A stretch of DNA of 32,000 nt from Cereibacter sphaeroides 2.4.1 (GTDB lineage: Bacteria; Pseudomonadota; Alphaproteobacteria; Rhodobacterales; Rhodobacteraceae): NCBI RefSeq assembly GCF_000012905.2, contig NC_007488.2:1-32000 (forward strand). The letters run 5' to 3'. Shown here piece by piece: positions 1 to 31,363 of the stretch; within the stretch, counting starts at the first letter, position 1, and each line of letters opens with the position of its first letter. Under the pieces are notes generated by a model. It ran no database searches. It was given only the letters and a program-made list of their open reading frames with translations, and was not told the origin of the DNA. A program made the position numbers and the translations under genes.

Positions 1-1553
1 GAACTGTCGCCTCTTCCTGTCGGGACAATGGAGGATCGGCGGCATGGGATGGGTGCTGATGAGCGAGCGCGAACTGAACCGCATCGAGATCCTGTCGAAG
101 GTGCTCGATCGGAGGATGACGACGACGGAAGCCTCGGTTCTGCTGGCGATCGGCCCGCGTCAGGTGCAGCGTCTGCTGCGACGGTTGCGCGAGGACGGCG
201 CGGCGGCAACGCGGCACGGGTTGCGCGGGCGACCGTCGAACCACCGCCTCTCGCCGGGATTGCGGGACCTTGCGCTGGCCCTCGTGCGGGAGACCTACGT
301 CGATTTCGGCCCCACGCTCGCGGCCGAGAAGCTGGCCGAGCGCGACGGCCTGCATGTGTCGCGGGAGACGCTGCGGAAGTGGATGGTCGAGGATGGGCTC
401 TGGCTGTCGCGTCCTCAGCGCCGGAGGTTTCACCAGCCGCGGCTGCGGCGCGAGCACCTGGGCGAACTGGTTCAGATAGACGGGTCCGATCATCATTGGT
501 TCGAGGATCGCGCACCAGCCTGCACGCTGCTCGTCTTCATCGACGACGCGACGAGCCGGCTGATGGAGATGCGCTTCGTGCCCTCCGAGAGCACCTTTCG
601 CGCTAATTCGCGGCGCTGGATTGCTACTGGACGCGGGACGGCAGGGCAAGGGTTTCTACTCCGACAAGCATTCGGTCTTCCGCGTGGCGAGGCAGGACGC
701 GCGGACCGGCCATGGCATGACGCAGTTCGGCCGGGCGCTGGCCGAGTTGAACATCGAGATCCTCTGCGCCAACTCCTCGCAGGCCAAGGGCCGGGTCGAG
801 CGGGCGAACCGCACCTTGCAGGACCGGCTGGTCAAGGAGATGCGGCTTGCAGGCATCAGCGACATGGAGGCCGGGAACGCCTTCCTGCCCGGCTTCATCG
901 AGCGGCACAACGCGCAGTTCGCCAGGGTGCCTGCCCGGCCGGACGACCGGCACCGGCCGCTGAACCTGCCCCCGGACCGGCTGGCCGACATCCTGTGCTG
1001 GCGCGACCAGCGCTACGTCGGGAACCAGCTCACCTTCACCTACGAGCACCGGCGGATCCTGCTGGAGGAAAGCGACCTCACGCGCGGCATCGTGGGGAAA
1101 TACGTCGACACCTACGCCTTCCCGGACGGACGTTTTGAAGCTCGATGGAAAGGCATCTCGCTCCCCTACCGCAGCTTCGATCCCGAGCAGCAGCATGTCA
1201 CCCACGCGGCCATCACCGCGAACAAGCGGCTCAGCGACGTCCTGGCGCTGGCGAGGAGCCTGCAGGAAAGCCAACCCCCGCGCGTGAGCCGCGTCGGCCG
1301 GCAGCGCACAGTCTACGAGCCGACGGGTCGGCGGAACGACGGCTGGAATTCGAAACTGGCCCGCCGCGCCAGGCAGCGGGCGGACGGGACGGCGAAGCCT
1401 CCCGACATCGCGGCGGAATGACCGTGCGGACCCGGAGCGTTCCGCCCCCGCCGGCCCCGTCCCTACGGCCCTTCCTGACGAGAGCGGGCCGGGGCCGGCT
1501 CAGCCCTGCGACACCGGGACGACATTTCTACTTTGCACGCCAGGCGACACTTT
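1..1553 (+). mobile_element. Insertion sequence copy, ISNCY-family-like (single HTH + DDE/rve transposase). The left end lies at or just outside the window start.
   Basis: Encloses the transposase frames at 44-1421. Candidate terminal inverted repeat: AACTGTCGCCT (2-12) versus the reverse complement of 1543-1553 (AAGTGTCGCCT), 10/11 matched with a perfect TGTCGCCT core. The left flank is not visible, so no target-site duplication can be checked. Confidence 0.5.
44..1421 (+). pseudogene. ISNCY-type transposase, disrupted by frameshift(s) near 564-655
   Basis: The N-terminal part (frame of 44; likely ATG at 59) reads MSERELNRIEILSKVLDRRMTTTEA...GRPSNHRL...VQIDGSDHHWFEDRAP...LLVFIDDATSRLMEMRFVPSESTF. 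The C-terminal part (frame of 621) reads GFYSDKHSVFRV...NSSQAKGRVERANRTLQDRLVKEMRL. Together they make one HTH + integrase-core protein, but in two frames. A TGA at 561-563 closes the second frame upstream. The third frame (607-648, FAALDCYWTRDGRA) may carry the bridging residues, which would imply two shifts. Confidence 0.75.
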
Positions 1554-2658: not shown

Positions 2659-3468
2659 ATGATGCGGAGTCTTGAACGGCACGCCGTCATCCTCGGGCTC
2701 CTGCGCCAGCAGGAGCATGTCACCATCGAGGCCATGGCCGCGGCCTGCGACGCGTCGCTCCAGACCATCCGGCGCGACCTCAACCAGCTCGGCGAGGACG
2801 GGCGGGTGGTGCGCTATCACGGTGGGGCGCGGCTCGCCGACCATGCCCGCAGCGCCACCTACGAGGTGCGGAGCGCGAGCCATGTGCGCGAGAAGGTGGC
2901 GGCGGGCCAGCTGCTCGCCCGCTTCATCCCCGACGGCGCCACGCTCTTCATCGCCGGCGGCTCCACCCTCGCGCTTGCCGCGCAGGAGCTCCGCGCCTGC
3001 GAGGGGCTGACGATCGTCACGAACAACCTCCATGCCGCCGTAACCCTTTATGACAAGACGGGTTTCGACGTCTGCGTCCTGGGCGGCACCATGCGGCCCG
3101 CCAGCGGATCGATGATCGGCGAAGAGGCGGTGCGCATGATCGAGCGCTATTCGCTCGACTTCGCGGTGATCGGCACCTGCGGGATCTCGCCCGACGGCGC
3201 CCTTCTGGAATATGACCAGAGCCTCGTGCCGCCCCTCCTCGCCATGATCTCGAACGCACGCCGCACGGTGCTGGTGGCCGACGGATCGAAGTTCGGCGCC
3301 AAGGGAATCGTGCGCGCCGCCCCCCTCTCGGCGGTGAACCATTTCGTGACCGACCGCGCCCCCGAAGGCCGCGCCGCCGACCTGCTCGCCCGCACCGGGG
3401 TGAAGGTGCATCACCCCGCCAATCCCAACCTGAGCTCGCAGGACGCGGCGGCAGATGGCCGTGAATGA
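2659..3468 (+). CDS. DeoR/GlpR-family transcriptional regulator (N-terminal HTH plus sugar-phosphate-binding domain)
   Basis: MMRSLERHAVILGLLRQQEHVTIEAMAAACDASLQTIRRDLNQLGEDGRVVRYHGGA is a canonical DeoR HTH. The C-terminal DeoR effector domain follows (TLFIAGGSTL...IVTNNL...GG...DFAVIGTCGI). The start is ambiguous among 2641, 2659 and 2662. Confidence 0.85.
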   Translation: MMRSLERHAVILGLLRQQEHVTIEAMAAACDASLQTIRRDLNQLGEDGRVVRYHGGARLADHARSATYEVRSASHVREKVAAGQLLARFIPDGATLFIAGGSTLALAAQELRACEGLTIVTNNLHAAVTLYDKTGFDVCVLGGTMRPASGSMIGEEAVRMIERYSLDFAVIGTCGISPDGALLEYDQSLVPPLLAMISNARRTVLVADGSKFGAKGIVRAAPLSAVNHFVTDRAPEGRAADLLARTGVKVHHPANPNLSSQDAAADGRE

Positions 3469-3507
3469 CCAGAATAGTCCAGAACCGAAGAAAATATCTG
3501 ACTCATA

Positions 3508-3536
3508 TTGACAATAATTCACAACAACGATCATAT
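3508..3536 (+). promoter_or_regulatory. Candidate sigma70-type promoter/operator of the ABC-catabolic operon
   Basis: AT-rich island in a GC-rich context. Perfect TTGACA at 3508-3513, a 17-nt spacer, then TCATAT at 3531-3536. TCATAT also occurs at 3503-3508, so the pair may be direct-repeat half-sites for the adjacent DeoR regulator. Confidence 0.35.
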
Positions 3537-3641
3537 CGGCCCATCCGGTCCCCGTAGCGCGAGGAGGCGCGACCGGATCCAGCGGCCCGTGGAGCGGGCC
3601 GGCCATCGGCCCGGTCAGGACCGGGTCCTCAGGGAGGGAAC

Positions 3642-4931
3642 ATGAGACAGTTCATCATCGGCGCCGCCGTGGCGCTCGTTGCCGTGCCGGCCGCAGCGCA
3701 GGAGTTCGACTGGCGCAAGCACGAGGGCGAGACGATCAACGTCATGCTGAACAACCTCGCCTGGACGCAGCTGATGCGCGACCGGATCGAGGCCTTCACC
3801 GAGGCCACCGGCATCAGGGTGCGCGCCGAGACCTTCAGCGAAGAGCAGTACCGCACCCGCCTGACCACGCTTCTTCAGGGCGGCTCGAGCGAGCTCGACG
3901 TCTTCATGACCCTGCCCTCGCGCGAGGCGCCGCTCTTCGCCTCGAACGGCTGGTATGCCGATCTCGCGCCGCTCCTGAAGGGCGAGGCGACCGATCCGGC
4001 CTACGATTACGACGATTTCAGCGCGGCCCTGCGCCAGAGCGGCGTGGTGGGCGAGACCATCACCAGCGTGCCGATCAACGTCGAGGGCCCGCTCTTCTAC
4101 TGGCGCCGCGACATCTTCGAGAAATGCAACGTCGAGAAGCCCGAATATCTCGAGGATCTGCCCGCCGCGGCCGAGAAGATCCGCGCCTGCGACAGCGCGA
4201 TCACGCCCTGGGCCGCCCGCGGCCTGCGCGGCACCGTGGGCTACCCGCTCGGCGCCTTCGTCTACAACATGGGCGGCGACTTCATGGATGCGGACGGCAA
4301 GGCCTCGCTCTGCCTGCCGGGCACGATCAAGGGCCTCGACCTCTACGGCTCGATGCTGCGCGACTACGGCCCGCCGGGCGCCACCAACCACACCTTCACG
4401 CAGGTGATGGACCTGCTGGGTCAGGGCCGCGTCGCCATGACCAACGAATCCTCGAACGAATTCTCGACCCTGATGAAGCATGAGGGCCGGGCCGAGGACA
4501 TCGGCGTGGATGTGCTGCCCGGCGGGCGCGAGTCCGGCACCTCGAAACCCGTGGTCATCAACTGGAGCCTCGCCGTCTCGGGCCTCTCCGAGAACAAGGA
4601 AGCCGCCTGGTATTTCGTCCAGTGGGCCACCGGCGCCGAGAACCAGGAGGCGCTCGCCACGCAGGGCATCGCCCCCTCGCGCGTCTCGGTCTTCAACGGC
4701 GAAGGCTTCCGCAACTGGGCCAGCGAAAGCCGCCCGCGCGGCGAATGGCTCGAGGCGCTGCTCGAGATCTCGCAGACCGGCTCCTCGCTCTACCAGACCC
4801 CCTCGCTGACCCGGACGCCCGAGGCGCGCGAGATCCTGTCGAACGTGGTGCAGCAGATCGTGCTGGGCCAGACCGACGCCGAAACCGCCGCCTGCGCCGT
4901 GACCGACGAGGTCCAGGCCCTGCAGAACTGA
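3642..4931 (+). CDS. ABC transporter periplasmic substrate-binding protein (carbohydrate, family 1 SBP)
   Basis: Sec signal MRQFIIGAAVALVAVPAAAQE. Strong SD (GGGAGGGA) 5 nt upstream. Typical sugar-SBP length (429 aa) and context, directly upstream of MalF/MalG-like permeases. Confidence 0.9.
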   Translation: MRQFIIGAAVALVAVPAAAQEFDWRKHEGETINVMLNNLAWTQLMRDRIEAFTEATGIRVRAETFSEEQYRTRLTTLLQGGSSELDVFMTLPSREAPLFASNGWYADLAPLLKGEATDPAYDYDDFSAALRQSGVVGETITSVPINVEGPLFYWRRDIFEKCNVEKPEYLEDLPAAAEKIRACDSAITPWAARGLRGTVGYPLGAFVYNMGGDFMDADGKASLCLPGTIKGLDLYGSMLRDYGPPGATNHTFTQVMDLLGQGRVAMTNESSNEFSTLMKHEGRAEDIGVDVLPGGRESGTSKPVVINWSLAVSGLSENKEAAWYFVQWATGAENQEALATQGIAPSRVSVFNGEGFRNWASESRPRGEWLEALLEISQTGSSLYQTPSLTRTPEAREILSNVVQQIVLGQTDAETAACAVTDEVQALQN

Positions 4932-4936
4932 TCGCG

Positions 4937-4978
4937 GCGGGCCTTCGGGCCCGCAGCCCCCGGACCTTCGGGTCCGGG
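4937..4978 (+). terminator. Two consecutive GC-rich hairpins with UUCG tetraloops between the SBP and permease genes (intercistronic attenuator or mRNA stabiliser)
   Basis: GCGGGCC-TTCG-GGCCCGC (4937-4954) and CCCGGACC-TTCG-GGTCCGGG (4959-4978), both perfect stems, start 6 nt after the SBP stop codon. No clean U-tract follows. Confidence 0.5.
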
Positions 4979-5075
4979 TCCCTTCTCTGCCGCAGGCCCG
5001 TGCCGGCCGCAGCCCTCCCCTCCCGTTTCAGCCAGGAGAGCCCCATGCCCCCCCCGGTCCCCCGGCCAGCAGGCC

Positions 5076-5912
5076 ATGTCGGCCCGCTGGATGATCCTGC
5101 CCGCCGTCGTCATGACGCTGGCCATGGTCATCTTCCCCTTGGGCTTCGCCATCTATCTGAGCCTCGGCGGCAACGGCACGCTGCCGGCCCTGGGCCTCGG
5201 CCATTACAGCCGCCTCGTGGCCGACCCCGCCTTCTGGAGCGCGCTGCGCGTGACGCTCGTGCTCTTCGTGGTGGCGCTCGTGCTGCAGCTGGTGCTGGGC
5301 ACCGCGCTCGCGCTGGCGCTCAACCGCTACAATGTGGTGCGCGGGCTGGTGCGGACGGCGATCCTGTCGCCCTTCATGCTGCCCCCCGTCGTGGTGGGCA
5401 TGATCGCCATCGTCGTGCTCGATCCGGGCCTCGGCGCCGCCAACTGGATCCTCGAGAGCCTGGGCCTGCCGCATTTCCTCTGGCTCGCCTCGCCGCGCTG
5501 GTCGCTGCTGGTGGTGGCGCTGATCGACACCTGGCAATGGACGCCCTTCGTGGCCCTGATCGTGCTGGGCGGCCTGCAGGCCCTGCCCGCCCGGGTCTAC
5601 GAGGCGGCCGAGATCGACGGCGCCAGAGGCTGGAGCCTCTTCTGGCACGTCACGCTGCCGCTCCTCGGGCCGACGCTCCTGACCGCCGCCGTGCTGCGCT
5701 CGGTCGATCTGCTGCGCTTCTTCGACATCATCTACATCACCACGCAAGGGGGGCCCGGCAACGCGACCACGACCCTCAACATCCAGGCCTACAAGCTGGG
5801 CTTCGACTTCATGGATGTGGGCTACGCCTCGTCGGTGATGATCGTGCTCGCCCTCATCGTCCTCGGCTCGGTGGTCTTCTTCGCCAGCCTGCGCAAGAAG
5901 GTGTCCTGGTAA
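5076..5912 (+). CDS. Carbohydrate ABC transporter permease (MalF/UgpA-like)
   Basis: Six-TM profile. EAA-type loop [28 protein letters not shown]. Confidence 0.9.
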
Positions 5913-6724
5913 TGTCCGACACGCCCCGCTCCCGCTGGTCCACCCCCGTCTTCACGATCGGCGCGCTGCTGTTCATGTCGCCGATCCTCTGGATGGCGCT
6001 CTCGAGCCTGAAGAGCCCGCAGGAGGTGACCGCCTATCCGCCGAAGCTCCTCTTCACCCCCACGGCCGGCAACTATGCCGAGCTGTTCGGGCGGACGGAC
6101 TTCCTGCACAACACCTTCAATTCCTTCGTGGTGGCCGGCGCCTCGACCCTCCTCGGGCTCGTCATCGCGATCCCTGCGGCCTTCGCGATCTCGTGGCACC
6201 GGATGGTCTGGCCCGCGACGGTCAGCCTCTTCGCCCGGATGGCGCCCGGCACGCTGTTCCTGCTGCCCTGGTTCATCATGTTCTCGAAGCTCGGCATGGC
6301 GGGCGGCTACACCGCGCTCATCCTCGCCCATGCGGTCATCACCATGCCGCTCGCGCTCTGGATCCTGCTGCCCTATCTCGACGCCACCCCGCGCGAGATC
6401 GTGGAAAGCGGCCAGATCGACGGCTGCCGCAGCGGCACGATCCTGATCCGCCTCGTGCTGCCGATGATCTATCCCGGCATCGTGGTGGCGACGATCATGA
6501 GCTTCGTCTTCTCCTGGAACTACTTCCTGTTCGCTCTGGCGCTCTCGGGCTTCGACACCAAGACCGCCATCGTCGCCTCCTTCAACTTCATCGGCGAGGG
6601 CACGACCAACTGGGGCGCGCTCATGGCCGCGGCCACCGTCATCGCGCTTCCGCCGCTGGTCCTGACCTTCACCGTGCAGCGCTGGCTCGTCTCGGGCCTC
6701 TCCTTCGGCGCCGTCAAGGGCTGA
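5912..6724 (+). CDS. Carbohydrate ABC transporter permease (MalG/UgpE-like)
   Basis: ATG at 5912 overlaps the upstream stop (TAATG, 5910-5914). EAA loop [31 protein letters not shown]. The long upstream extension in the ORF track (from 4622) is a shadow frame. Confidence 0.9.
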
Positions 6725-6756
6725 CCGGCCCCGCCCCCCACGCAAGGTTTCCTGAT

Positions 6757-7815
6757 ATGAGCACCGTCCACGTCCGCAACGTCAAAAAGAGCTACTCCGA
6801 CCTGACCGTGATCGAGGATCTGTCCTTCGACATCCACGACGGCGAGTTCATGGTCTTCGTCGGCCCCTCCGGCTGCGGCAAGTCCACCCTCCTGCGCATG
6901 ATCGCCGGGCTCGAATCCTTTCAGGGCGGCGAGGTGGCCATCGGCGCGCGCGTCGTGAACGGCGTGCCCGCGCGCGACCGCAACATCGCCATGGTGTTTC
7001 AGGATTACGCGCTCTATCCGCACATGACGATCCGGGACAACATGTCCTTCGGCCTCAAGATGCGGAAGACGCCCAAGGCCGAGATCGAGCGGCGGGTGGC
7101 GGCGGCGGCCGAGATCCTCCAGATCGGCCACCTGCTCGACCGCAAGCCCCGCGCGCTTTCGGGCGGCCAGCGCCAGCGCGTGGCCATGGGCCGCGCCATC
7201 GTGCGCGAGCCCGACGTGTTCCTGTTCGACGAGCCGCTCTCGAACCTCGATGCCAAGCTCCGCGTCGAGGTCCGCACCGAGATCAAGCGGCTTCATGCCC
7301 GCCTCGGCGCCACGATGATCTATGTGACCCACGATCAGGTCGAGGCCATGACCATGGCCGACCGGATCGTGGTGCTGAAGGGCGGCGCGGTCGAGCAGAT
7401 CGGCACCCCGCAGGAGCTCTATCGCGAGCCGCGCACCCGGTTCGTCGCGGGCTTCATCGGCTCGCCGGGGATGAACTTCGCCCCCGCCCGGATCGAGGGC
7501 GACGTGGCCACGCTCGTGACCGGCGACCGGGTGGCCGTGCGCCGCGTCACCCCCGGCACGGGCGCGGTGCAGGGCGAGATCGGCATCCGCCCCGAACATG
7601 TGCAGCTGGCCGACCCGCACGGCCCGGGCGTCGAGACACTGGTCGATGTGGTCGAACCGCTCGGCGCCGACACGCTGGTCGCGGTCCGGCTCGACGAGGC
7701 GCAGCTCATGGTGCGCCTGCCCGGCGAGATCATCCCCGCCGAGGGCGACCGCCTGCGGCTTTCCTTCACCCCCGGCGCGACGATGGCCTTCGACGCGCAG
7801 GGACTGCGGATCTGA
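6757..7815 (+). CDS. ABC transporter ATP-binding protein (MalK/UgpC-type with C-terminal regulatory/TOBE domain)
   Basis: Walker [11 protein letters not shown]-loop, signature [14 protein letters not shown], Walker [14 protein letters not shown]-loop YVTHD. Confidence 0.92.
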
Positions 7816-7842
7816 TCCGCGCCGGACGACAGAGGTAGACCC

Positions 7843-8856
7843 ATGAAGGCAGCGATTTTCGACGGCAGCCCGACGCTCCGGCTGACCGACCTTCCGATTC
7901 AGGAACCCGGCCCCGACGAGGTGCTGATCCGCATCGATTCCGCCACGATCTGCGGCACCGATCAGCATATCCTCGAGGGCAAGTTCTGGGCGAAGCCCCC
8001 GGTGGTGCTGGGCCATGAATTCGCGGGCTACGTCGAGCGCGTGGGCGAGCGGGTGCAGAACTGCAGGCCGGGCGATCTCGTCTCGGTCGAGCCGCATGTC
8101 TATTGCGGCTGCTGCAAGCCCTGCCGGCTCGGCAAGCCGCATCTCTGCCTCGACCGTCTGGCTTGGGGGATCAACCTCAACGGCGGGTTCGAGCAATATG
8201 CCACCGTGCGGATGGACACCGTCTATCAGGTGCCGGAAGGCATCGGCCCCGAAGAGGCGGCTCTGGGCGAGATCACCGGCTGCTGCATGCACGGGATCGA
8301 CCGCGTGGGGGTCGAGCTCGGCGATCTCGTCGTGATCCTCGGCGGCGGCGCGGCGGGCCTGATCCTCGCCCGGCTGGCCGAGCTGCGCGGGGCCGCGCGC
8401 ATCGTCATCTCCGAGCCGAACGCCGCCCGGCGCGAGCAGATCCGCGCCTTCGGCTACCCGGACGTGGTCGACCCGCTGAACGAGGATCTGGCCGCCCGCA
8501 TCGGCGCCCTGACCGACGGGCTCGGCGCCGACGTGGTGATCGAGGCCGCGGGCCGCGCCGAGACGGCCGCGCAGGCGGTGGAGCTCGTCTGCCACGGCGG
8601 GCGCGTCCTCTTCTTCGGCGTGGCCGCCCCCGGCACCATGGCCGCCATCGAGCCGAACCGGATCTTCGCGCGCGAGATCACGGTCGTGGGCTCGATCCGC
8701 AACCCCTATACCCACCACCGCGTGATGGAGATCCTGCCCCGGCTCCGGCTGAAGGACATCGTCACCCACCGCTTCCCGCTGGAGAATATCGCCGAGGCCT
8801 TCGACGCCGCCCACCGCGGCGAGGGCCTCAAGATCTGCATCAAGCCGAACGGCTGA
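7843..8856 (+). CDS. Zn-dependent medium-chain alcohol/polyol dehydrogenase (sorbitol or threonine dehydrogenase-like)
   Basis: Catalytic Zn ligands CGTD...GHEFAG. Structural Zn cysteine cluster CGCCKPCRLGKPHLC. Rossmann motif VVILGGGAAGL. Confidence 0.9.
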   Translation: MKAAIFDGSPTLRLTDLPIQEPGPDEVLIRIDSATICGTDQHILEGKFWAKPPVVLGHEFAGYVERVGERVQNCRPGDLVSVEPHVYCGCCKPCRLGKPHLCLDRLAWGINLNGGFEQYATVRMDTVYQVPEGIGPEEAALGEITGCCMHGIDRVGVELGDLVVILGGGAAGLILARLAELRGAARIVISEPNAARREQIRAFGYPDVVDPLNEDLAARIGALTDGLGADVVIEAAGRAETAAQAVELVCHGGRVLFFGVAAPGTMAAIEPNRIFAREITVVGSIRNPYTHHRVMEILPRLRLKDIVTHRFPLENIAEAFDAAHRGEGLKICIKPNG

Positions 8857-8934
8857 CCCACCCCACCCCGGCCGTGCGCCCCCCCGCGGACCCTCTTCCG
8901 CGGCCGGCGGAGCCATGCCCCTGAAGGAAAGACC

Positions 8935-10380
8935 ATGACCGATTTCAGACGCGAGAAGATCCTCGTCGGCGGCGACTGGATCCAGGCCGACGCGGGCGGC
9001 CGGATCGAGGTGACGAACCCGGCCACCGGCGCCGTGATCGGCACCGTCCCCGATGCGGGCGCGGCCGAGACGGCGCGCGCGGTGGCCGCCGCCGAAGCGG
9101 CCTTCGGGCCGTGGCGCGCCCTTACCGCGGCCGAGCGCGCGACCCATCTGCGGAGGCTCGCTCAGGCGATCCTCGATCACCGCGAGGCGCTGGCCGAGCT
9201 TCTGACCGAGGAACAGGGCAAGCCCCTGGCCGAAGCCCGCGGCGAGGTCGGCATGAGCGCAGCCTACATCCAGTGGTTCGCCGAAGAGGCCCGCCGCGTC
9301 TATGGCGAGGTGATCCCCTCGCCCTGGCCCGACCGGCGGCTCCTCGTCACCCGGCAGCCGGTGGGCGTGGTGGCGGCGATCACGCCCTGGAACTTCCCCT
9401 CCTCGATGCTCGCCCGCAAGATCGGCCCCGCGCTGGCCGCGGGCTGCACCGTCGTGGCCAAGCCCGCCAGCCAGACGCCCTTCTCGGGCCTGGCCTGGGG
9501 GGTGCTGGGCGAGATGGCGGGCCTGCCCGCGGGCGTGCTGAACATCGTCACGGGCTCGGCCCGCGCCATCGGGGGCGAGCTCACCGCCAACCCATCGGTG
9601 CGCAAGATCACCTTCACCGGCTCCACCCCCGTGGGCAAGGTGCTGCTCGCGCAGGCCGCGGGCACGGTGAAGAAGATGTCGATGGAGCTCGGCGGCAACG
9701 CGCCGTTCCTCGTCTTCGACGATGCCGATCTCGACCGCGCCGTCGAGGGCGCCATCGCGGCCAAGTTCCGCAACGCGGGCCAGACCTGCGTCTGCACCAA
9801 CCGCTTCTACGCGCAGGCCGGCATCCACGATGAGTTCGTGAAGCGGCTGGCCGCGGCCACCGCCGCGCTGAAGGTGGGCCCGGGCGCACAGGACGGATCC
9901 GAGATCGGCCCGCTGATCGACGCGGCCGCGGTGGCCAAGACCGAGGAGATGGTGGCCGACGCCACCGCCAAAGGCGGGCGCATCGTCACCGGCGGGCGGC
10001 GGCACACGGCCGGCGCGGGCTTCTACGAGCCCACCGTCATCGCCGACGCGACCGACGCCATGACCTTCGCCCGCGAGGAGATCTTCGGCCCCGTGGCCCC
10101 GGTCTTCCGCTTCGAGACCGAGGAGGAAGCGATCCGGCGCGCCAACGCCACCGAGTACGGCCTCGCCTGCTACTTCTACACAAGCGATCTCGGCCGCGCC
10201 TTCCGCGTCTCCGAGGCGCTCGATTACGGCATCGTCGGCGTGAACGAGGGGCTGGTCACCACCGAGGTCGCCCCCTTCGGCGGGGTGAAGGAGTCGGGCT
10301 TCGGCTCCGAAGGCTCGCACCACGGGATGCAGGATTACCTGACGCTGAAATATACCGCGATGGGAGGGCTCGGCCGATGA
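8935..10380 (+). CDS. NAD(P)+-dependent aldehyde dehydrogenase, GabD (succinate-semialdehyde dehydrogenase)-like; candidate sulfolactaldehyde dehydrogenase
   Basis: ALDH motifs ITPWNFP, KITFTGSTPVGK, MELGGNAP (catalytic Glu), FRNAGQTCVCTNR (catalytic Cys), EEIFGPV, EYGLACYFYT. These match the GabD subfamily over the full length. Confidence 0.92.
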   Translation: MTDFRREKILVGGDWIQADAGGRIEVTNPATGAVIGTVPDAGAAETARAVAAAEAAFGPWRALTAAERATHLRRLAQAILDHREALAELLTEEQGKPLAEARGEVGMSAAYIQWFAEEARRVYGEVIPSPWPDRRLLVTRQPVGVVAAITPWNFPSSMLARKIGPALAAGCTVVAKPASQTPFSGLAWGVLGEMAGLPAGVLNIVTGSARAIGGELTANPSVRKITFTGSTPVGKVLLAQAAGTVKKMSMELGGNAPFLVFDDADLDRAVEGAIAAKFRNAGQTCVCTNRFYAQAGIHDEFVKRLAAATAALKVGPGAQDGSEIGPLIDAAAVAKTEEMVADATAKGGRIVTGGRRHTAGAGFYEPTVIADATDAMTFAREEIFGPVAPVFRFETEEEAIRRANATEYGLACYFYTSDLGRAFRVSEALDYGIVGVNEGLVTTEVAPFGGVKESGFGSEGSHHGMQDYLTLKYTAMGGLGR

Positions 10381-11432
10381 CCCGCCGCCACGCCGTAGCC
10401 CTCATCCCCGGCGACGGGATCGGCCCCGAGGTGATCGACGCGAGCCTCGAGGTGCTGGAGAAGGTGGCGCGCCTCCACGGCTTCGCGCTCGACATGACCC
10501 GCTTCGACTGGTCCTGCGACCGCTACCTCGCCACCGGCCGCATGATGCCCGAGGACGGGATCGACCAGCTCCGCCCCCATGCGGCGATCCTTCTCGGCGC
10601 CGTGGGCTGGCCCGCGCGCGTGCCGGATGCGGTCTCGCTGCACGGGCTTCTGCTGCCGATCCGCAAATCCTTCGACCAGTTCGCCAACATGCGCCCGCAC
10701 AGGCTTTTGCCCGGCGCCACCGGGCCGCTGAAGTCCGAGGCCTTCGACATCCTCTGCATCCGCGAGAACACCGAGGGCGAATATTCCGGCGCGGGCGGGC
10801 GGATCCATGTCGGCACCCCGGCCGAGGTGGCGGTCGAGACCTCGATCTTCACCCGCCGCGGCGTCGAGCGCATCCTGCGCTTCGGTTTCGAACAGGCGCG
10901 GCGGCGCTCGGGGCGGCTCGCCTCGGTCACCAAGTCGAACGCGCAGAAATATTCCATGGTCTTCTGGGACGAGGTGACGGAAGAGGTCGCGGCCGATTAT
11001 CCCGACGTGACCGTCTCCCGCTACCATATCGACGCCATCGCGGCGCGGATGGTGATGGCGCCCGAGACGCTCGACGTGGTGGTGGCCTCGAACCTTTTCG
11101 GCGACATCCTGACCGACCTCGGCGCGGCCATTCAGGGCGGCCTCGGCTTCGCGCCCTCGGCCAACATCAACCCCGACCGCAGCCAGCCCTCGATGTTCGA
11201 GCCGGTCCACGGCTCGGCCCCCGACATCGCGGGGCGCGGCATCGCGAACCCGGTGGCCACGCTCTGGTCCGCGGCCCTCATGCTCGACCATCTGGGCGAG
11301 GAGGCGGCCGGCCGGTCGCTTCTCGCCGCGCTCTCGGCCGTCACCGCCGAGGGCCGCCTCCGCACACCCGATCAGGGCGGCCGGGCCTGCACGACCGATG
11401 TCGCGCGCGCCGTGGCCGACCGCCTGTCCTGA
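10377..11432 (+). CDS. Tartrate dehydrogenase/decarboxylase or D-malate dehydrogenase-like enzyme (isocitrate/isopropylmalate dehydrogenase superfamily)
   Basis: IPGDGIGPEV N-terminus, LRKSFDQFANMRP, IRENTEGEYSG, NLFGDILTDLGAAIQGGLG, FEPVHGSAPDIAGRGIANP. The start overlaps the ALDH stop (ATGA, 10377-10380). Confidence 0.88.
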   Translation: MTRRHAVALIPGDGIGPEVIDASLEVLEKVARLHGFALDMTRFDWSCDRYLATGRMMPEDGIDQLRPHAAILLGAVGWPARVPDAVSLHGLLLPIRKSFDQFANMRPHRLLPGATGPLKSEAFDILCIRENTEGEYSGAGGRIHVGTPAEVAVETSIFTRRGVERILRFGFEQARRRSGRLASVTKSNAQKYSMVFWDEVTEEVAADYPDVTVSRYHIDAIAARMVMAPETLDVVVASNLFGDILTDLGAAIQGGLGFAPSANINPDRSQPSMFEPVHGSAPDIAGRGIANPVATLWSAALMLDHLGEEAAGRSLLAALSAVTAEGRLRTPDQGGRACTTDVARAVADRLS

Positions 11433-11461
11433 CCCCCCTTCCCCTCGAAAGGATTTCTCCC

Positions 11462-12331
11462 ATGGCCTCCACCCCGGATCTCTCGGCCCTCCAGCGTCCC
11501 TCGGGCGCCTTCGCCATGCTCGCCATCGACCAGCGCGAGTCGATGCGCGCCATGTTCGCCGACACTCAGGCCGAGCCGGTCAGCGACCGCCAGCTCGTCG
11601 ATTTCAAGCTCGAGGCGCTGCGCCACCTGACGCCCCACGCCTCGGCGGTGCTGATCGACCGGCCCTTCGGCTGGCAGCCCGCGCTCGAGGCGGGCGTCGT
11701 GGCGCAGGGCTGCGGCCTCATCGCCGCCGCCGACGAATTCCACGCCAGCGCCGACGAGATCGTGGCCGATGCGGGGCTCGACGATCTGGTGGTGCCCGAG
11801 GCGGTGAAGGCGCAGGGCGCGCAGGCGCTGAAGCTGCTCGTGGTCTGGCGCCCGGACGGCAACCCCGAAAAGCGGATCGCGCTGGTCGACGAATTCGTGG
11901 CCCGCTGCCGCCGCGCCGGGCTCATCTCGCTGATCGAGCCCGTGTCGCGCAAGCCGCTCGACGGGCGGCCGCACGATCTGCACGACGGCATCCTCGCCGC
12001 CGCGCGCGAGCTCGGCAACCGCGGCCAGGACATCTACAAGGCCGAAGTGCCGCTCCATGCCGCGGGCGACGAGGCCGAGGTGCGCCGCCGCTGCGCCGAA
12101 CTCACGGAAGCCATCGCCTCGCCGTGGGTGGTGCTCTCCTCGGGCGTGGCGCCGGACCGGTTCCCGACCGCGGTGGAATGGGCCTGCCGCGAGGGCGCGC
12201 AGGGCTTCCTCGCCGGACGCGCGGTCTGGAAAGAGACCATCGGCGCCCCCGACATGGCCGAGGCGCTGCGCACCACCGCGGTGGACCGGCTGAAGCGGCT
12301 GTGCGAGACGGTGGACCGGGCGGTCGGCTGA
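11462..12331 (+). CDS. Class I aldolase of the LacD/YihT family; YihT (sulfofructose-1-phosphate aldolase)-like
   Basis: [57 protein letters not shown]...GFLAGRAVW. From memory these track E. coli YihT more closely than tagatose-bisphosphate aldolase LacD (ALAFDQRG). Confidence 0.85.
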   Translation: [289 protein letters not shown]

Positions 12332-12356
12332 CGGCCCGCGGCGGAAGGAGAGCGCG

Positions 12357-13256
12357 ATGAACGTTCGGGTGGCCTGCGTCGGCGGGGCGGTGCTGGATCG
12401 GGTCTACGAGGTCGCGGCGCTGCCCGGCACCGACGGCAAGTCCCGCGCCTCCTCCTACCGCGAGTTCGGCGGCGGGATGGCGGGCAATGCCGCGGTGGCG
12501 ATCGCCCGTCTGGGCGGGCAGGCCCGCTGGTGGGGCCGCGTGGGCGACGATGCCATCGGCGCGGGCGTGCTGGCGGGGCTCGCGGCCGAGGGCGTGGCCA
12601 CCGCCGAGGCGCGCGTGGTGGAGGGGGCGGTCTCGTCCCACTCGCTCGTCCTCTCGGATGCCGAGGGGCGGCGCGCCATCGTACTCTACCGCTCGGACGG
12701 GCTCGACCCCGATGCCTCGTGGCTGCCGCTCGCGGCGGTGGGCGGGCTCGATGCGGTCCTGGCCGACAACCGCTGGATCGACGGGGCGGTGGCCGCCCTC
12801 ACCGCCGCGCGCGCGGCGGGCCTGCCGGCGGTGCTCGATGCCGATGCGGGCGCCGACCCCCGCAGCCGCGAGGCGGTGCAGGCGGCCTCGCATGCGATCT
12901 TCTCCGAGCCGGGGCTGGCCGAGATCTACGGCACCTCCGACCCCGACGAGGGCCTCCGCCACGCCGCGGCCGACGCGCCCTTCGTGGCGGTGACGCTGGG
13001 CGAGGCGGGCCTGCGCTGGCGCGACGCCCGAGGCGGCCTCGCCTCGCTGCCCGCCTTCCCCGTCCGGGCGGTCGAGACGGTGGGCGCAGGCGACGTCTTC
13101 CACGGCGCCTTCGCCCTCGCGCTGGCCGAGGGCCAGCCGCCCGAGGACGCGCTCCGCTTCGCCGCCGCCACTGCCGCGCTGAAATGCCGGGGCTCGGGCG
13201 GCCGCGCGAGCTATCCCGGCCGCACCGCCGTCGAGGACCTGCTGCGGCAGGGCTGA
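12357..13256 (+). CDS. PfkB-family sugar(-phosphate) kinase; YihV (sulfofructose kinase)-like
   Basis: RVACVGGAVLDRVY, GGGMAGNAAVAIARLG, GRVGDD, VLADNRWIDGA, FSEPGLAEIYG, VGAGDVFHGAFALALAEG, AALKCRGSGGRA. PfkB signatures 1 and 2 are present. The SD GGAAGGAG lies upstream. Confidence 0.88.
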   Translation: MNVRVACVGGAVLDRVYEVAALPGTDGKSRASSYREFGGGMAGNAAVAIARLGGQARWWGRVGDDAIGAGVLAGLAAEGVATAEARVVEGAVSSHSLVLSDAEGRRAIVLYRSDGLDPDASWLPLAAVGGLDAVLADNRWIDGAVAALTAARAAGLPAVLDADAGADPRSREAVQAASHAIFSEPGLAEIYGTSDPDEGLRHAAADAPFVAVTLGEAGLRWRDARGGLASLPAFPVRAVETVGAGDVFHGAFALALAEGQPPEDALRFAAATAALKCRGSGGRASYPGRTAVEDLLRQG

Positions 13257-13572
13257 CGGCGCCCCTTCACATCAGAAAGAGAAATACCCTTCAGCCGGGG
13301 GGAGCATCGGCCTGCCCCTTTCCTCCGAAAGCAGAGGCAGGGGGAAGGGGCTTCGGCCCAATGCCCGCCCTGGCCGCCCATTCACCGAGCGATGTCGCCC
13401 CTTTCAGCCGAAAGCTCGGCGAATTGCGGAGGGCAGGCCGGGCTTTTGCCGGTTCGATTTCAATCCCCACGCTGCTAGGCTCTGCCGCGGACAGGGCGCC
13501 TGCGCAAAATGGCCGCGTCATCGCGCCTTTTGCGGCCCGTCCGGTTCAGTTCATAGTATCGGGATTGGTTCA

Positions 13573-14637
13573 ATGCCTCCTTCTCGCGAGGTCCAATGGC
13601 ACAGGCAGCGGCATTCGCAGCGTCTGGAAGCGCTTCAGGCCTGCCGGATGATTGCAGCGGTCGCCGTCGTGCTGTTTCACGCGAACAATTTCGTCCTGCC
13701 GATGCGGCTCTACGAGGGCGAAACCCTCTGGCGCGGTTTCGGCATGGGCTATGCCGGCGTCGAATTCTTCTTCGTCCTTTCGGGCTTCATCATCGCCCAT
13801 ATCCATGCCGCCGATATAGGGCGGCCGGAACGGGCAGGCCGCTTCCTGCAAAAGCGATTCCTGCGGATCTATCCGCCCTACTGGATCGTGCTGAGCGCGC
13901 TCGTGCTGATCTATGTCGCGCTCGAGGGAATCGTCTCACCCTCGCGTCTGGCTCCCGCGGCGCTTCTGCGCGATTATCTGCTGATCCCCGCGCCGCAGAG
14001 GCCGCTCCTGTCGGTCGCCTGGACGCTGAAACACGAGATCCTGTTCTATCTCCTGTTCGTCCTCTTCATCCTCAGGCGCGAGATAGGCGTCGTCGTCTGC
14101 GCGCTCTGGCTCGCGGGCACGCTCTCCCAGATCCCCGCAGCGTCCGAGACGCCGCTCTTCGCCACCCTCTTCTCGCCCTACAACATTCTCTTCGGGATGG
14201 GCGTGGCGGTCGCGCGCCTTCACCGCCACCTGCCCGAAAGCCTCGTCTGGCCGCTCCTGACGGCGGGCGGCGCGGGCTTCCTTCTGGTCGGGCTGAGCGA
14301 GCAGTTCCTCGTCGCCTGGCCGCTGCCTCTCCGCTGCCTCGCCTATGGCCTCGCCGCCGCCGCGGTGATCGCGGCGCTGGCCCGGGCACAGACGGGGGCG
14401 CCCGGCTGGTGCGTGTTTCTGGGCGATGCCTCCTATGCCATCTACCTGATCCACCTGCCCGTGATGAACATGGTAGCGGTGCCGCTCGCCCGGACGGGCC
14501 TGCAGGAGGTCCTGCCTCCCGCGGTCCTGTTCGTCTTCCTCGTGGGCCTGTCGATCCTCGCGGGCGCGCTCTTCCACCGGGGCGTCGAGCGCGGGTTGCT
14601 CGCCGCGCTCCGGCCCCGGCGGCGGGCCACGCTCTGA
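13573..14637 (+). CDS. Acyltransferase family 3 (OafA/YrhL-type integral membrane O-acyltransferase)
   Basis: RLEALQACRMIAAVAVVLFHA..., GVEFFFVLSGFII, RFLRIYPPYW, AWTLKHEILFY, DASYAIYLIHLPV. About 10 TM segments. Confidence 0.85.
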   Translation: MPPSREVQWHRQRHSQRLEALQACRMIAAVAVVLFHANNFVLPMRLYEGETLWRGFGMGYAGVEFFFVLSGFIIAHIHAADIGRPERAGRFLQKRFLRIYPPYWIVLSALVLIYVALEGIVSPSRLAPAALLRDYLLIPAPQRPLLSVAWTLKHEILFYLLFVLFILRREIGVVVCALWLAGTLSQIPAASETPLFATLFSPYNILFGMGVAVARLHRHLPESLVWPLLTAGGAGFLLVGLSEQFLVAWPLPLRCLAYGLAAAAVIAALARAQTGAPGWCVFLGDASYAIYLIHLPVMNMVAVPLARTGLQEVLPPAVLFVFLVGLSILAGALFHRGVERGLLAALRPRRRATL

Positions 14638-14653
14638 CGGCGCGGGGGGCCTG

Positions 14654-19618: not shown

Positions 19619-20317
19619 ATGACCCGCCTCCTGCCCCTCCTCACCCTTCTGGCCGCTCTGGCCTTCGCCGCCTCGCCGCTCACCACGCAGGGCTTCAACG
19701 GCTTCACCGCCGACCAATTCCCGATCCCGCAGGTCGATCCGCCGGTGCAGCCCGCGGGCTACGCCTTCGCAATCTGGGGCGTGATCTATCTCTGGCTGAT
19801 CCTCGGCGCGGGCTTCGGCCTCTGGAAGCGCGCCCGCGACCCGGACTGGCAGCGGATGCGGCCGCCGCTGCTGGCGAGCCTCGCCATCGGCGCGGCCTGG
19901 ATCCCGGTCGCCAATGCCGCCCCCGTCGCCGCCACCGCCATGATCTGGGCCATGCTCGCCGGCGCCGTGGCCGCGCTTGTCCGCAGCGGTCCCCGCGATC
20001 CCTGGTGGCAGCGCGCGCCCGTGGCCCTCTATGCAGGCTGGCTCACCGCCGCGGCCTCTGTGGCGCTGGGGCTGGTCGCGGCCGGACACGGCCTCCTGTC
20101 CGCAGAGGCGGCAGCGCTTGCGGCCCTCGCCCTCGCGCTGGCCTGTGCCCTCGCCGTGATCCTCCGCGGACCCCGCGCCCCCGCCTACGGCACCGCCGTG
20201 GCCTGGGCGCTCGGCGGCGTGGTCGTCTCGAACCTCGCGCCGCTCAACCTGCCCGTCCTCACCCTCGCCGGAGCGGGCCTCCTCCTCACAGGCGTCCTCA
20301 CGCTCCGCCGCAGCTGA
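19619..20317 (+). CDS. Integral membrane protein, possibly TspO/MBR-related (tryptophan-rich); function unknown
   Basis: Signal/TM MTRLLPLLTLLAALAFAA, then five or more hydrophobic segments. GYAFAIWGVIYLWLILGAGFGLW resembles the TspO TM1-2 region. The family assignment is tentative. Confidence 0.6.
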   Translation: MTRLLPLLTLLAALAFAASPLTTQGFNGFTADQFPIPQVDPPVQPAGYAFAIWGVIYLWLILGAGFGLWKRARDPDWQRMRPPLLASLAIGAAWIPVANAAPVAATAMIWAMLAGAVAALVRSGPRDPWWQRAPVALYAGWLTAAASVALGLVAAGHGLLSAEAAALAALALALACALAVILRGPRAPAYGTAVAWALGGVVVSNLAPLNLPVLTLAGAGLLLTGVLTLRRS

Positions 20318-20321
20318 CAGG

Positions 20322-25689: not shown

Positions 25690-26165
25690 CGCTCGATGCC
25701 GAGCGGGCGGGGCAGGGTCCTCGACGCCTGCGCGCGACTGGGGGCAGGGGTGACAGACGGTCATTTCCCGCTGGCGGTCCGGCAGACCGACAGCGGCATC
25801 CAGACCGACATGAATGCGAAGGAGGTGCTGGCCCATGCGGCCGACATGGCGGCGGGGCAGGGGCCGGGGACGCGCGCGCCGGTCCATCCGAACGATCGCG
25901 TCAACCGCAGCCCGTCCTCGAACGGCCGTCTCCCGACCGTGATGCAGATGGGTCGTGGATGAGGCGCGCGGATCGCGGCCGCGCCCGAGGAGCGGGCGGG
26001 CCTTCGGAGGCATCCCCCGGCTCGGGCGGGCTCATCCAGACGAGAGGGCGCCGGTGTCGCTGTCGCAGAGGGTCGCGGCCGCGGCGGCAGGGTGTTGGAG
26101 GTATTTCGGCGGGGCCGATCCTTTGCGGGGGGATCGGGGAACCTGTTGGTGGGAGCGGTCGGTAA
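25690..26165 (+). pseudogene. Decayed, frameshifted and internally deleted relic of a class II fumarate hydratase (fumC/aspartase family) gene
   Basis: Frame 1 reads HFPLAVRQTDSGIQTDMNAKEVLAHAA...VHPNDRVNRSPSSNGRLPTVMQMG, compared with FumC (E)[26 protein letters not shown]...[24 protein letters not shown]. After a stop, frame 2 reads GRAHPDERAPVSLSQRV, compared with GRTHLQDATPLTLGQEI. A third frame reads LCGGIGEPVGGSG, compared with LGGTAVGTG. Conserved catalytic residues are mutated and about 17 codons are missing between blocks. Confidence 0.6.
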
Positions 26166-30200: not shown

Positions 30201-30260
30201 CTGGACCTACATTCGCTCTGAACTGGACATATCCGAGCGGGATCGCTGCGGCAATATGTC
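30201..30260. promoter_or_regulatory. Divergent control region with CTGGAC direct repeats and a GACATAT/ATATGTC inverted repeat
   Basis: CTGGAC at 30201-30206 and 30223-30228 (22-bp period). GACATAT (30226-30232) faces ATATGTC (30254-30260). MocR regulators bind spaced direct repeats. The first repeat, CTGGACCTAC, resembles the TauR site CTGGACYTAA as I recall it. Confidence 0.4.
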
Positions 30261-30309
30261 GTCATGGATTCGCCACAAGAGCGAGCCGCCAACAGAGAGA
30301 GAGACCGAG

Positions 30310-31311: not shown

Positions 31312-31363
31312 CCGCCCGTCCCGTCCCGCGACGCATCTTCCAGCCCTCTGTCGGAGGTCTTCC

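Follow-up and report, generated by a model that had tools for sequence, protein, structure and literature searches.

The degradation of sulfoquinovose (SQ), the turnover of which is estimated at ~10 Pg per year, forms a major arm of the sulfur cycle, and the routes described for it, to our knowledge, all begin with an isomerase, a C1 dehydrogenase or an oxygenase. The DNA considered here comprises positions 1 to 32,000 of contig NC_007488.2 of Cereibacter (Rhodobacter) sphaeroides 2.4.1, hereafter the window, and carries a ten-gene operon that encodes, among other proteins, relatives of the kinase YihV and the class I aldolase YihT, which phosphorylate sulfofructose (SF) and cleave sulfofructose 1-phosphate (SFP) in the Embden-Meyerhof-Parnas form of sulfoglycolysis (sulfo-EMP). 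The operon represents an undescribed pathway, which most likely degrades a negatively charged, probably sulfonated, sugar alcohol.

The ten-gene operon and its enzymes

The window matches the 114-kb plasmid of this strain at 100% identity and includes its repABC genes, confirming the plasmid location proposed in the initial annotation, which had been made from the sequence alone. Ten open reading frames, all on the + strand, occupy positions 2659-13256 with inter-gene gaps of -4 to 173 bp, and the families that the initial annotation gave them agree with Pfam and NCBIfam profiles for all ten products (Table 1). Both gene overlaps it reported are exact, the second of which, ATGA at 10377-10380, joins the gene of an aldehyde dehydrogenase (ALDH) to that of a tartrate/D-malate dehydrogenase-family enzyme (TDH), so that the pair can be called translationally coupled. 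Because C. azotoformans and Aquamicrobium sp. LC103 have these ten genes in the same order, with proteins 66-85% identical, the operon is a conserved unit rather than a chance arrangement. The DeoR-family regulator is 35% identical to E. coli CsqR (BLASTP), yet GlpR models score equally well; its orthologues (65-88% identity) are the first gene of the cluster in three collected loci (L006, L010 and L011). Promoter and terminator scans of the operon gave no signal above shuffled expectation. The palindrome behind the gene of the substrate-binding protein (SBP) of the ATP-binding cassette (ABC) transporter is possibly an mRNA-stabilising hairpin, a function that we infer.

Table 1. Genes and sequence features of the operon, with positions in the window
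Feature	Position	Strand	Basis and remarks
DeoR/GlpR-family regulator	2659..3468	+	PF08220 + PF00455; alternative ATG start 2641
CUT1-family periplasmic SBP, signal peptide	3642..4931	+	PF01547/PF13416
GC-rich palindrome directly 3' of SBP gene	4939..4960	+	inverted repeat
ABC permease 1	5076..5912	+	PF00528; stop overlaps start of permease 2 (TAATG, 5910-5914)
ABC permease 2	5912..6724	+	PF00528
MalK/UgpC-type ABC ATPase	6757..7815	+	PF00005 + TOBE_2; UgpC subfamily model 492 bits (cut-off 432)
Zn-dependent medium-chain (polyol-type) dehydrogenase, 'W-type'	7843..8856	+	PF08240 + PF00107
GabD-like ALDH (succinate semialdehyde dehydrogenase-like), candidate sulfolactaldehyde dehydrogenase	8935..10380	+	TIGR01780 657 bits (cut-off 646)
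TDH, candidate (S)-sulfolactate dehydrogenase	10377..11432	+	TIGR02089 550.6 bits (cut-off 470.4)
YihT-family class I aldolase (SFP aldolase family)	11462..12331	+	PF01791, DeoC/LacD family
YihV-family PfkB kinase (sulfofructose kinase family)	12357..13256	+	PF00294
Weak terminator-like hairpin 3' of last gene, likely 3' limit of operon	13432..13450	+	consensus scan, no better than shuffled expectation

The sequences place the aldolase and the kinase with YihT and YihV, not with LacD, LacC or FruK, as had been proposed; activity on the corresponding sulfosugars is predicted. Among solved structures, the aldolase is closest to YihT of Salmonella and E. coli (1to3/7ag7; 6e-72, 245 bits), followed by a DUF2090 protein (8tnf, 72 bits) and LacD (5hjl; 6e-16, at most 62 bits). 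It is 43% identical to E. coli K-12 YihT (BLASTP), and reaches 47 bits against the LacD equivalog model (cut-off 432) and 156 bits against PRK12858 (cut-off 184). The Schiff-base residue Lys193 and the residues of the phosphate/sulfonate site, Ser226, Ser227 and Arg253, are invariant in a 22-sequence family alignment, and Ala26 stands at the position of YihT Ser27, whose contact runs through backbone and water. The kinase finds YihV first (7ag6; 4e-65, 223 bits), with ribokinase far behind (1.5e-31, 113 bits) and an uncharacterised Agrobacterium kinase (2rbc) at 186 bits; its identity to E. coli K-12 YihV is 48% (BLASTP), and its scores against the models for 1-phosphofructokinase (40-41 bits, cut-offs 216-292), tagatose kinase (34, cut-off 420) and IolC (76, cut-off 300) are low. 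It retains the equivalents of Asp13, Lys27, Ser95, Arg138, Asp162 and Asp244, among which Asp13 and Ser95 are sugar ligands and Asp244 is the catalytic residue of the GXGD motif. The roles of these YihT and YihV residues, including the Lys27-Arg138-Asn109 triad with which YihV binds the sulfonate, have been established by Sharma et al. 2021 (PMC8006165). Every window peptide quoted in support of the original assignment is found in the window, and the four E. coli peptides quoted beside them occur verbatim in K-12 YihT and YihV.

The remaining enzymes are consistent with oxidation steps on either side of kinase and aldolase. The Zn-dependent dehydrogenase, a medium-chain dehydrogenase (MDR), has as its nearest solved structures 4ej6, threonine dehydrogenases and sorbitol dehydrogenases, and the SBP is closest to a sorbitol-type SBP (4rya, 3.5e-22), with the SQ-glycerol binder SmoF at 4.7e-6. 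The ALDH, recognised as GabD-like from the start and matched by TIGR01780, scores 682 bits against the E. coli GabD model, 6.6e-189 against E. coli GabD and 1.3e-167 against the sulfolactaldehyde (SLA) dehydrogenase RlGabD (8c54). Its catalytic Cys285 and the Glu251 of its ELGG motif are present, and Arg161 and Arg279 are the equivalents of RlGabD Arg171 and Arg289, the pair proposed for sulfonate binding (PMC10599462). The place of the SLA-disposing enzyme of a sulfo-EMP pathway is thus taken by a GabD-like ALDH, the substrate being predicted from its sequence. The TDH is related to P. putida TDH (3flk, 4.8e-111) and is 52% identical to E. coli DmlA.

Related loci and the conserved module

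About 100 loci were collected, the neighbours of which were typed by tblastn with a reference panel, or by Pfam where genes had been called. By context, the aldolase family falls into three classes, designated enterobacterial, actinobacterial-type and window-type. The enterobacterial class comprises the long yih cluster and a 'short' form. The actinobacterial-type class, with a different PfkB lineage, a YihQ-like glycosidase, a SlaB-like ALDH, TauE and in some cases YihS (60-64% identity), consists of genuine sulfo-EMP clusters, and its aldolases are 54-64% identical to that of the window. The window-type class occurs in Alpha- and Betaproteobacteria and on many freshwater and soil contigs, and all of its loci contain a YihV-like kinase, a transporter and a polyol-type dehydrogenase, which is either a Zn-dependent MDR or a short-chain dehydrogenase (SDR). 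A neighbour-joining tree of the aldolases with 100 bootstrap replicates sets the family apart from outgroups in 95 of them; 100 contain the enterobacterial clade and 54 the window-type clade, with no deeper order among the three lineages resolved. The window aldolase is therefore placed by sequence as one lineage of a family in which all other members with a defining context are sulfo-EMP aldolases. The automated PGAP annotation calls the window copy 'aldolase', and the enterobacterial copies 'sulfofructosephosphate aldolase'. In the neighbourhood comparison suggested in the initial annotation, the dehydrogenase-kinase-aldolase module proved conserved and sister lineages were found in sulfo-EMP clusters, whereas the window-type loci turned out to have no isomerase; the 'sulfo-EMP gene grouping' by which Sharma et al. 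2023 (PMC10665668) recognise YihT is absent from the window and from window-type loci, where neither YihS/SqvD nor YihQ nor YihR occurs.

Both Alphaproteobacteria and Bacillus contain a recurrent module made up of a Zn-dependent MDR, a PfkB kinase, an aldolase, a GabD-like ALDH and a TDH-like enzyme. In Consotaella and Bacillus infantis it takes the form of a tripartite ATP-independent periplasmic (TRAP) transporter, MDR (61-66% identical to the window enzyme), PfkB, class II aldolase (PF01116), ALDH and Iso_dh, the ALDH and TDH of Consotaella salsifontis being 67% and 72%, and the TDH of B. infantis 55%, identical to the window proteins. The same arrangement without ALDH and TDH is found in Petroclostridium and another Firmicute, and across such TRAP/class II aldolase operons the MDR homologues are 53-66% identical to that of the window. 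This exchange of a class I for a class II aldolase parallels that between YihT and SqiA, which distinguishes sulfo-EMP from EMP2 (PMC10665668). The Consotaella TRAP SBP scores 125 bits against an isethionate binder and 138 bits against sialic-acid and other binders, and the Consotaella class II aldolase reaches 195 bits against SqiA (8q57), near the generic fructose- and tagatose-bisphosphate aldolases; these solved-structure searches, like that with the ABC SBP, do not distinguish a sulfonate from a carboxylate.

Orthologues of the window dehydrogenase (53-85% identity) always have the PfkB kinase and the aldolase adjacent, and four forms accompany the two genes among the loci, namely three MDR types and one SDR. 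The 'W-type' MDR is found in the window, Aquamicrobium, L018 and Kaistia, the 'B-type' in Belnapia and freshwater loci, and the 'N-type' in E. coli Nissle, L031, L033 and L046; the SDR has KduD and gluconate 5-dehydrogenases as its nearest solved structures, and is often accompanied by a PF04199 metal hydrolase, which could be a lactonase. As identity between the three MDR types is only 25-31%, a polyol-type dehydrogenase has been recruited repeatedly, which argues that it is functionally required. The locus tails differ as well, consisting of an ALDH with a further enzyme, of a YihU-like reductase (L008 and L020), or, in the actinobacterial type, of an ALDH with TauE. Tblastn of aldolase and kinase against plasmids led to informative gene contexts in few cases only; the copies of S. 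meliloti and Mesorhizobium lie in unrelated neighbourhoods.

Several loci have peculiarities of their own. In freshwater clusters a second, highly divergent YihT-like aldolase (24-30% identical to E. coli YihT) sits between the kinase and a CsqR-like regulator, alongside the window-type aldolase (L027, 8196-9077; likewise L024, L028, L030, L032 and L073). A PF00596 class II aldolase/adducin-family gene stands 3' of the aldolase in L024, L027, L032 and L073 (70-78% identity) and after the Iso_dh gene of Variovorax sp. E3 (L016, 18365-19279), the product of which is only 45% identical to the window TDH and appears frameshifted in its second half. The Arthrobacter sp. YA7-1 plasmid pYA7-1a (L005, 1647-15143) combines an SDR, a DgoD-type dehydratase, a DHDPS-type aldolase and an SMP-30 lactonase, resembling the Entner-Doudoroff form of sulfoglycolysis (sulfo-ED), with a PfkB kinase, a YihT-like aldolase, a SlaB-like ALDH, TauE and a Gfo/Idh/MocA enzyme. 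YihS is absent from this cluster, which may be a sulfosugar locus of hybrid or dual-route type. A metagenomic contig, probably of an anaerobic Firmicute (L104/L105, 4217-17677), encodes a DeoR regulator, two MDRs, a CUT2 ABC system, a 433-aa transaldolase-family protein, a shikimate-dehydrogenase-like protein, an Fe-dependent alcohol dehydrogenase, an AbfD/HpaB-like protein, an acetyl-CoA hydrolase/transferase and NifU, and may represent a fermentative equivalent, which would reduce the aldehyde and activate it as a CoA ester.

These comparisons bear on the fallback offered in the initial annotation, a neutral hexitol or ketose 1-phosphate route (galactitol/tagatose-like or fructose-1-phosphate-like) ending in dihydroxyacetone phosphate (DHAP) and glyceraldehyde. 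The sorbitol-type relative of the SBP, the resemblance of the MDR to sorbitol and threonine dehydrogenases and the name of the nearest NCBIfam aldolase model, tagatose-1,6-diphosphate aldolase, all agree with it. However, the LacD equivalog, PRK12858, tagatose-kinase and 1-phosphofructokinase models all remain below cut-off, the anion-binding Lys27/Arg138 pair is kept in the kinase, orthologous modules use TRAP transporters, and glycerate would leave the TDH, which follows an SSADH-like (succinate semialdehyde dehydrogenase-like) enzyme, without a role. TRAP transporters are carriers of organic anions, typically carboxylates. A neutral hexitol is accordingly disfavoured, to the point of being very improbable, and the substrate would be an anionic polyol.

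Proposed pathway and competing explanations

The pathway proposed for the operon would proceed under the control of the DeoR repressor. The CUT1 ABC system would take up a hexitol-like anion, for which a 6-deoxy-6-sulfohexitol, for example reduced sulfoquinovose, is the most likely candidate, and the Zn-dependent polyol dehydrogenase, the obvious stand-in for the missing aldose-ketose isomerase, would oxidise it at C2 to a 2-ketose, sulfofructose or an epimer. The YihV-like kinase would convert the ketose to its 1-phosphate (SFP), which the YihT-like aldolase would cleave via a Schiff base to DHAP and SLA. The GabD-like ALDH would then oxidise SLA to (S)-sulfolactate, a steric analogue of D-malate, and the TDH would oxidise (S)-sulfolactate to sulfopyruvate, to be handled elsewhere, for instance via sulfoacetaldehyde and the plasmid-encoded Xsc-Pta. 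The skeleton of this scheme, consisting of uptake, C2 oxidation, 1-phosphorylation, cleavage and two oxidations, is highly probable. The whole chain from sulfo-hexitol to sulfopyruvate is our best reading, in which we place intermediate confidence, and it is from gene order, family membership, catalytic residues, module conservation and kinship to sulfo-EMP enzymes that we infer all substrates, the sulfonate, the role of the MDR and the fate of sulfopyruvate.

That the substrate carries an anion follows from the TRAP transporters of orthologous modules, Lys27 and Arg138 of the kinase, and the succession of an SSADH-like ALDH and a D-malate-dehydrogenase-like enzyme. The aldehyde should suit the former, with its anion on the fourth atom, and the resulting acid a dehydrogenase of D-malate type. 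The sulfonate is the leading candidate: the aldolase clade is bracketed by sulfo-EMP aldolases, and the carbon count is right, as a C6 sulfosugar gives SLA and (S)-sulfolactate, fitting both ALDH and TDH. (S)-sulfolactate and D-(R)-malate agree in spatial configuration. The variation in locus tails, being of the kind known in sulfoglycolysis, is counted on the same side, as are the Arg pair retained in the ALDH, xsc, tauZ and pta on the same plasmid, the MDR, PfkB kinase and aldolase within the sulfonate island of Paracoccus wurundjeri, and the Zn-dependent dehydrogenase of the E. coli Nissle cassette. On balance, a sulfonate as the anionic group is about as probable as all other possibilities taken together.

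Two further assignments were considered and rejected. The MDR, ALDH and TDH could by themselves carry 2,3-dihydroxypropane-1-sulfonate through SLA and sulfolactate to sulfopyruvate, but the dehydrogenase co-varies with kinase and aldolase, not with ALDH and TDH (L014, L015, L099, L102 and L103). A desulfonating role of the TDH is ruled out chemically, a sulfonate not being a beta-carboxyl leaving group.

The enzymes might, alternatively, belong to ordinary sulfo-EMP degradation of SQ, with isomerase and sulfoquinovosidase encoded elsewhere in the genome and the MDR and TDH as passengers or catalysts of side reactions. In Paracoccus wurundjeri a PF07221 isomerase homologue indeed lies outside the cluster (PMC12421959), E. 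coli Nissle, which has no yihS, has been reported to grow on SQ (PMC12608037), and some public annotations name the Cereibacter proteins sulfofructose kinase and SFP aldolase. Against this stands the polyol-type dehydrogenase, from three unrelated MDR lineages or the SDR family, which is syntenic with kinase and aldolase in every window-type locus, a synteny that spans Alpha- and Betaproteobacteria, Firmicutes, E. coli and actinobacterial-type contigs with YihS never present; moreover, the ALDH and TDH genes are translationally coupled, and the SBP resembles polyol binders rather than SmoF. An SQ isomerase (PF07221 or PF02952) was found neither in the window, nor in the annotation of the whole plasmid, nor at window-type loci, the chromosomes lying outside this search. 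Ordinary SQ degradation is thus improbable. The organosulfonate-sugar operon of the initial annotation is partly supported, by aldolase, kinase and ALDH kinship; a sulfonate is a candidate substrate, and SQ itself a less probable one.

A more serious, though still somewhat unlikely, competitor keeps the architecture and replaces the anion with a carboxylate. An acid sugar alcohol of aldonic type would be oxidised to a keto-acid sugar, phosphorylated at its terminal CH2OH and cleaved to DHAP and a C4 acid semialdehyde; this malate or tartrate semialdehyde would be oxidised by the ALDH to D-malate or tartrate, and by the TDH to pyruvate and CO2 or to glycerate or oxaloglycolate, the YihT- and YihV-like enzymes having shifted from sulfonate to carboxylate recognition. 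The products, DHAP and pyruvate, would leave no orphan sulfonate. Much of the evidence for this scheme weighs directly against a sulfonated substrate. The TDH exceeds the tartrate-dehydrogenase equivalog cut-off, so that a genuine D-malate or tartrate is plausible; in Variovorax the slot after the ALDH is held by a DmlA-like enzyme (68% identical to E. coli DmlA); and the ALDH scores very highly against the E. coli GabD model. The alternative head enzyme, the gluconate-5-dehydrogenase/KduD-type SDR, resembles, together with its possible lactonase, enzymes of carboxylate acid sugars, and the anions typical of TRAP transporters are again carboxylates. Asn109 of the YihV triad is replaced by Leu in the operon kinase, and by Leu, Ile, Val, Ala or Tyr throughout the window-type kinases, mostly bulkier and hydrophobic residues. 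As the kinases of actinobacterial-type sulfo-EMP loci also have no such triad (Arg27, no Arg138), it may not be universal. The next solved relative of the aldolase after YihT, the DUF2090 protein, is presumably an IolC-associated aldolase acting on a carboxylate-tailed substrate, with which an NCBIfam kinase-aldolase fusion match agrees. At L104/L105 an MDR 54% identical to that of the window adjoins a 4-hydroxyacid-CoA route with a transaldolase, an Fe-dependent alcohol dehydrogenase and AbfD/AbfT-like enzymes, and because the latter, of 4-hydroxybutyryl-CoA type, need a carboxylate, this locus counts against a sulfonate.

The carboxylate scheme has difficulties of its own, the carbon count in particular. 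A hexonate, oxidised to a 5-keto-hexonate, would yield tartronate semialdehyde, which leaves an SSADH-like ALDH followed by a TDH no role, and this route was rejected; D-malate or tartrate as product demands a 7-carbon acid sugar, and we know of no abundant natural one. In addition, the aldolase clade is bracketed by sulfo-EMP aldolases, and the Paracoccus homologue resides within a sulfonate island (PMC12421959).

Other observations likewise count against a sulfonated hexitol. None of SQ isomerase, sulfoquinovosidase, TauE, SuyAB and Xsc is adjacent in any of ~35 window-type loci, and the only sulfonate-linked gene near the inspected clusters of this type is a TauD-family dioxygenase ~4 kb off in L027. 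No sulfopyruvate decarboxylase is annotated on the plasmid. The literature contained no report that we could find of a natural sulfo-hexitol, nor anything on sulfo-alditols, on sulfolactate with tartrate dehydrogenase or on sulfofructose with polyol dehydrogenases, and the E. coli Nissle cassette compared below is not induced by SQ (PMC12608037). Within the operon, neither a YihP- nor a TauE-type exporter for a C3 sulfonate is present, and the TDH gene follows the ALDH gene instead.

A broader version of the sulfonate proposal may be put forward tentatively. There may exist a widespread branch of sulfosugar degradation in which an NAD-dependent polyol-type dehydrogenase feeds a reduced sulfosugar to sulfofructose kinase and aldolase without an isomerase, the sugar being a 6-deoxy-6-sulfohexitol or SQ reduced by a nearby aldo-keto reductase. 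The TDH would then be a new type of (S)-sulfolactate dehydrogenase, and the C3 sulfonate would be metabolised further rather than excreted. Such a branch would explain the orphan Zn-dependent dehydrogenase of the Nissle cassette as well as MDP0926266 of P. wurundjeri. Aldo-keto reductase genes lie close to L011, L027 and L102; that they reduce SQ to the hexitol is speculation.

Plasmid setting and comparison with known systems

Upstream of the operon lie an ISNCY-family transposase and a bactofilin-like 'polymer-forming cytoskeletal protein' (window 44-1420 and 1732-2094); the adjoining transposase suggests that the operon was acquired as a mobile block. Other Cereibacter species carry related operons on plasmids or chromids. 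Downstream, after a 316-bp gap and on the same strand, an acyltransferase and a right-handed parallel beta-helix repeat protein are encoded (13573-16588), which are probably unrelated to the operon because they are missing behind the orthologous Aquamicrobium operon (L010). Beside repABC, a short 'seryl-tRNA synthetase' reading frame (232 aa) and a 70-aa 'lyase family protein' (19620-20318 and 25752-25964) have the look of gene fragments.

The same plasmid also bears the known taurine cluster of R. sphaeroides, tauR-tauKLM-tauXY-xsc-tauZ-pta, so that one replicon unites two organosulfonate-related loci. The cluster begins in the window (28733-32000) with tauR (MocR-type, - strand), tauK (30312-31313), tauL (31366-31926) and tauM (from 31926), tauKLM encoding a TRAP transporter; just beyond the window (L013) follow an NTF2-like protein and an FAD oxidoreductase (tauXY-like), xsc (sulfoacetaldehyde acetyltransferase), a putative sulfate exporter and pta, with xsc, tauZ and pta ~22 kb from the operon. 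As predicted from these genes, the cluster would provide the desulfonation of sulfoacetaldehyde, though without a sulfopyruvate decarboxylase by which sulfoacetaldehyde would be reached.

The initial annotation had held that the enzyme set fits no described variant of sulfoglycolysis, and this claim has stood up: two 2026 reviews (PMC12890257, PMC13436972) contain no such variant, and literature searches came back empty, the module of MDR or SDR, kinase, aldolase, ALDH and TDH being described in no paper found. Prior knowledge is limited to automated 'sulfofructose kinase' and 'SFP aldolase' labels on some Cereibacter copies, and to the isomerase-less kinase and aldolase of the Paracoccus paper; a 2023 survey of YihT homologues explicitly dropped sequences outside sulfo-EMP groupings (PMC10665668, section 7). 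If the substrate is a sulfonated polyol or ketose, the operon would provide a new entry reaction, probably a new natural sulfonate, and a new sulfolactate dehydrogenase family; it would also assign a function to genes carried by roughly one in four complete E. coli genomes, that of the probiotic Nissle 1917 among them, and account for a Paracoccus enzyme left unexplained in a 2025 study. If it is a carboxylate sugar, the operon defines a novel acid-sugar pathway, and YihT/YihV homology alone, on which KEGG, IMG and UniProt base their 'sulfofructose' labels, over-predicts sulfoglycolysis in metagenomes.

With the sulfo-EMP pathway of E. coli K-12 (yihO-W), the operon shares homologous kinase, class I aldolase and DeoR regulator, the catalytic and phosphate-site residues, and the logic by which a ketose 1-phosphate is split into DHAP and a C3 aldehyde. 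It differs in having none of YihS, YihQ, YihR, YihU and the importer and exporter of the major facilitator superfamily (MFS), entry being assigned to a Zn-dependent polyol dehydrogenase and an ABC importer with polyol-like SBP; its aldehyde is predicted to be oxidised, not reduced, before a TDH-family step, and the kinase has lost Asn109. Arthrobacter-type sulfo-EMP (SlaB, TauE) provides the closest context-defined aldolases, and likewise has an ABC importer, a DeoR regulator and a sulfolactate-forming ALDH of GabD/SlaB type. Its own features, YihS and/or a YihQ-like or Gfo/Idh/MocA enzyme, another PfkB lineage and sulfolactate export by TauE, are all absent from the window operon, which has the TDH in addition. 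The lower pathway of myo-inositol (IolC, IolJ and IolA) is alike in logic, as a PfkB kinase acts on a carboxylate-tailed ketose, an aldolase releases DHAP and an acid semialdehyde, and an ALDH follows, but its aldolase is of a different family and the operon has no inositol dehydrogenase, dehydratase or hydrolase genes.

Two systems share the dehydrogenase in place of the isomerase. The 'short yih cassette' of E. coli Nissle 1917, published as a truncated yihTUVW (PMC12608037), contains YihV and YihT homologues and a DeoR regulator, with a Zn-dependent MDR replacing yihS and no sulfoquinovosidase. At this locus (L086, NZ_CP022686.1 2849522-2858222; of a type found in 1,326 of 5,426 complete E. 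coli genomes), the MDR, two MFS transporters and an aldose 1-epimerase stand 3' of yihT in the same orientation, and the locus has the appearance of a full alternative pathway, not of a remnant. Its N-type MDR (29% identical to that of the window), full Lys-Arg-Asn triad, YihU reductase, MFS transporters and mutarotase are its own.

In P. wurundjeri, of the same bacterial family (Paracoccaceae), cluster 2 has SuyAB, SlcC, ComC and a sulfo-ED-like route for sulfofucose as its own features, and no GabD-like ALDH or TDH; on the 'tartrate metabolism' cluster 3 of this strain, the supplements of PMC12421959 contain no text. Translated from the published sequence, its 'threonine dehydrogenase' MDP0926266 belongs to the B-type MDRs, sharing 45-50% identity with the MDRs that stand before the YihV-like kinase in L015, L020 and L027, and 26% with the window enzyme; it is up on sulfofucose and inactive on SLA (PMC12421959). 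Embedded in this sulfonate island, the MDR, a PfkB kinase and a PF01791 aldolase recur together without an isomerase, as they do in the window operon, and their role was left open by the authors, who suggested sulfotagatose (PMC12421959).

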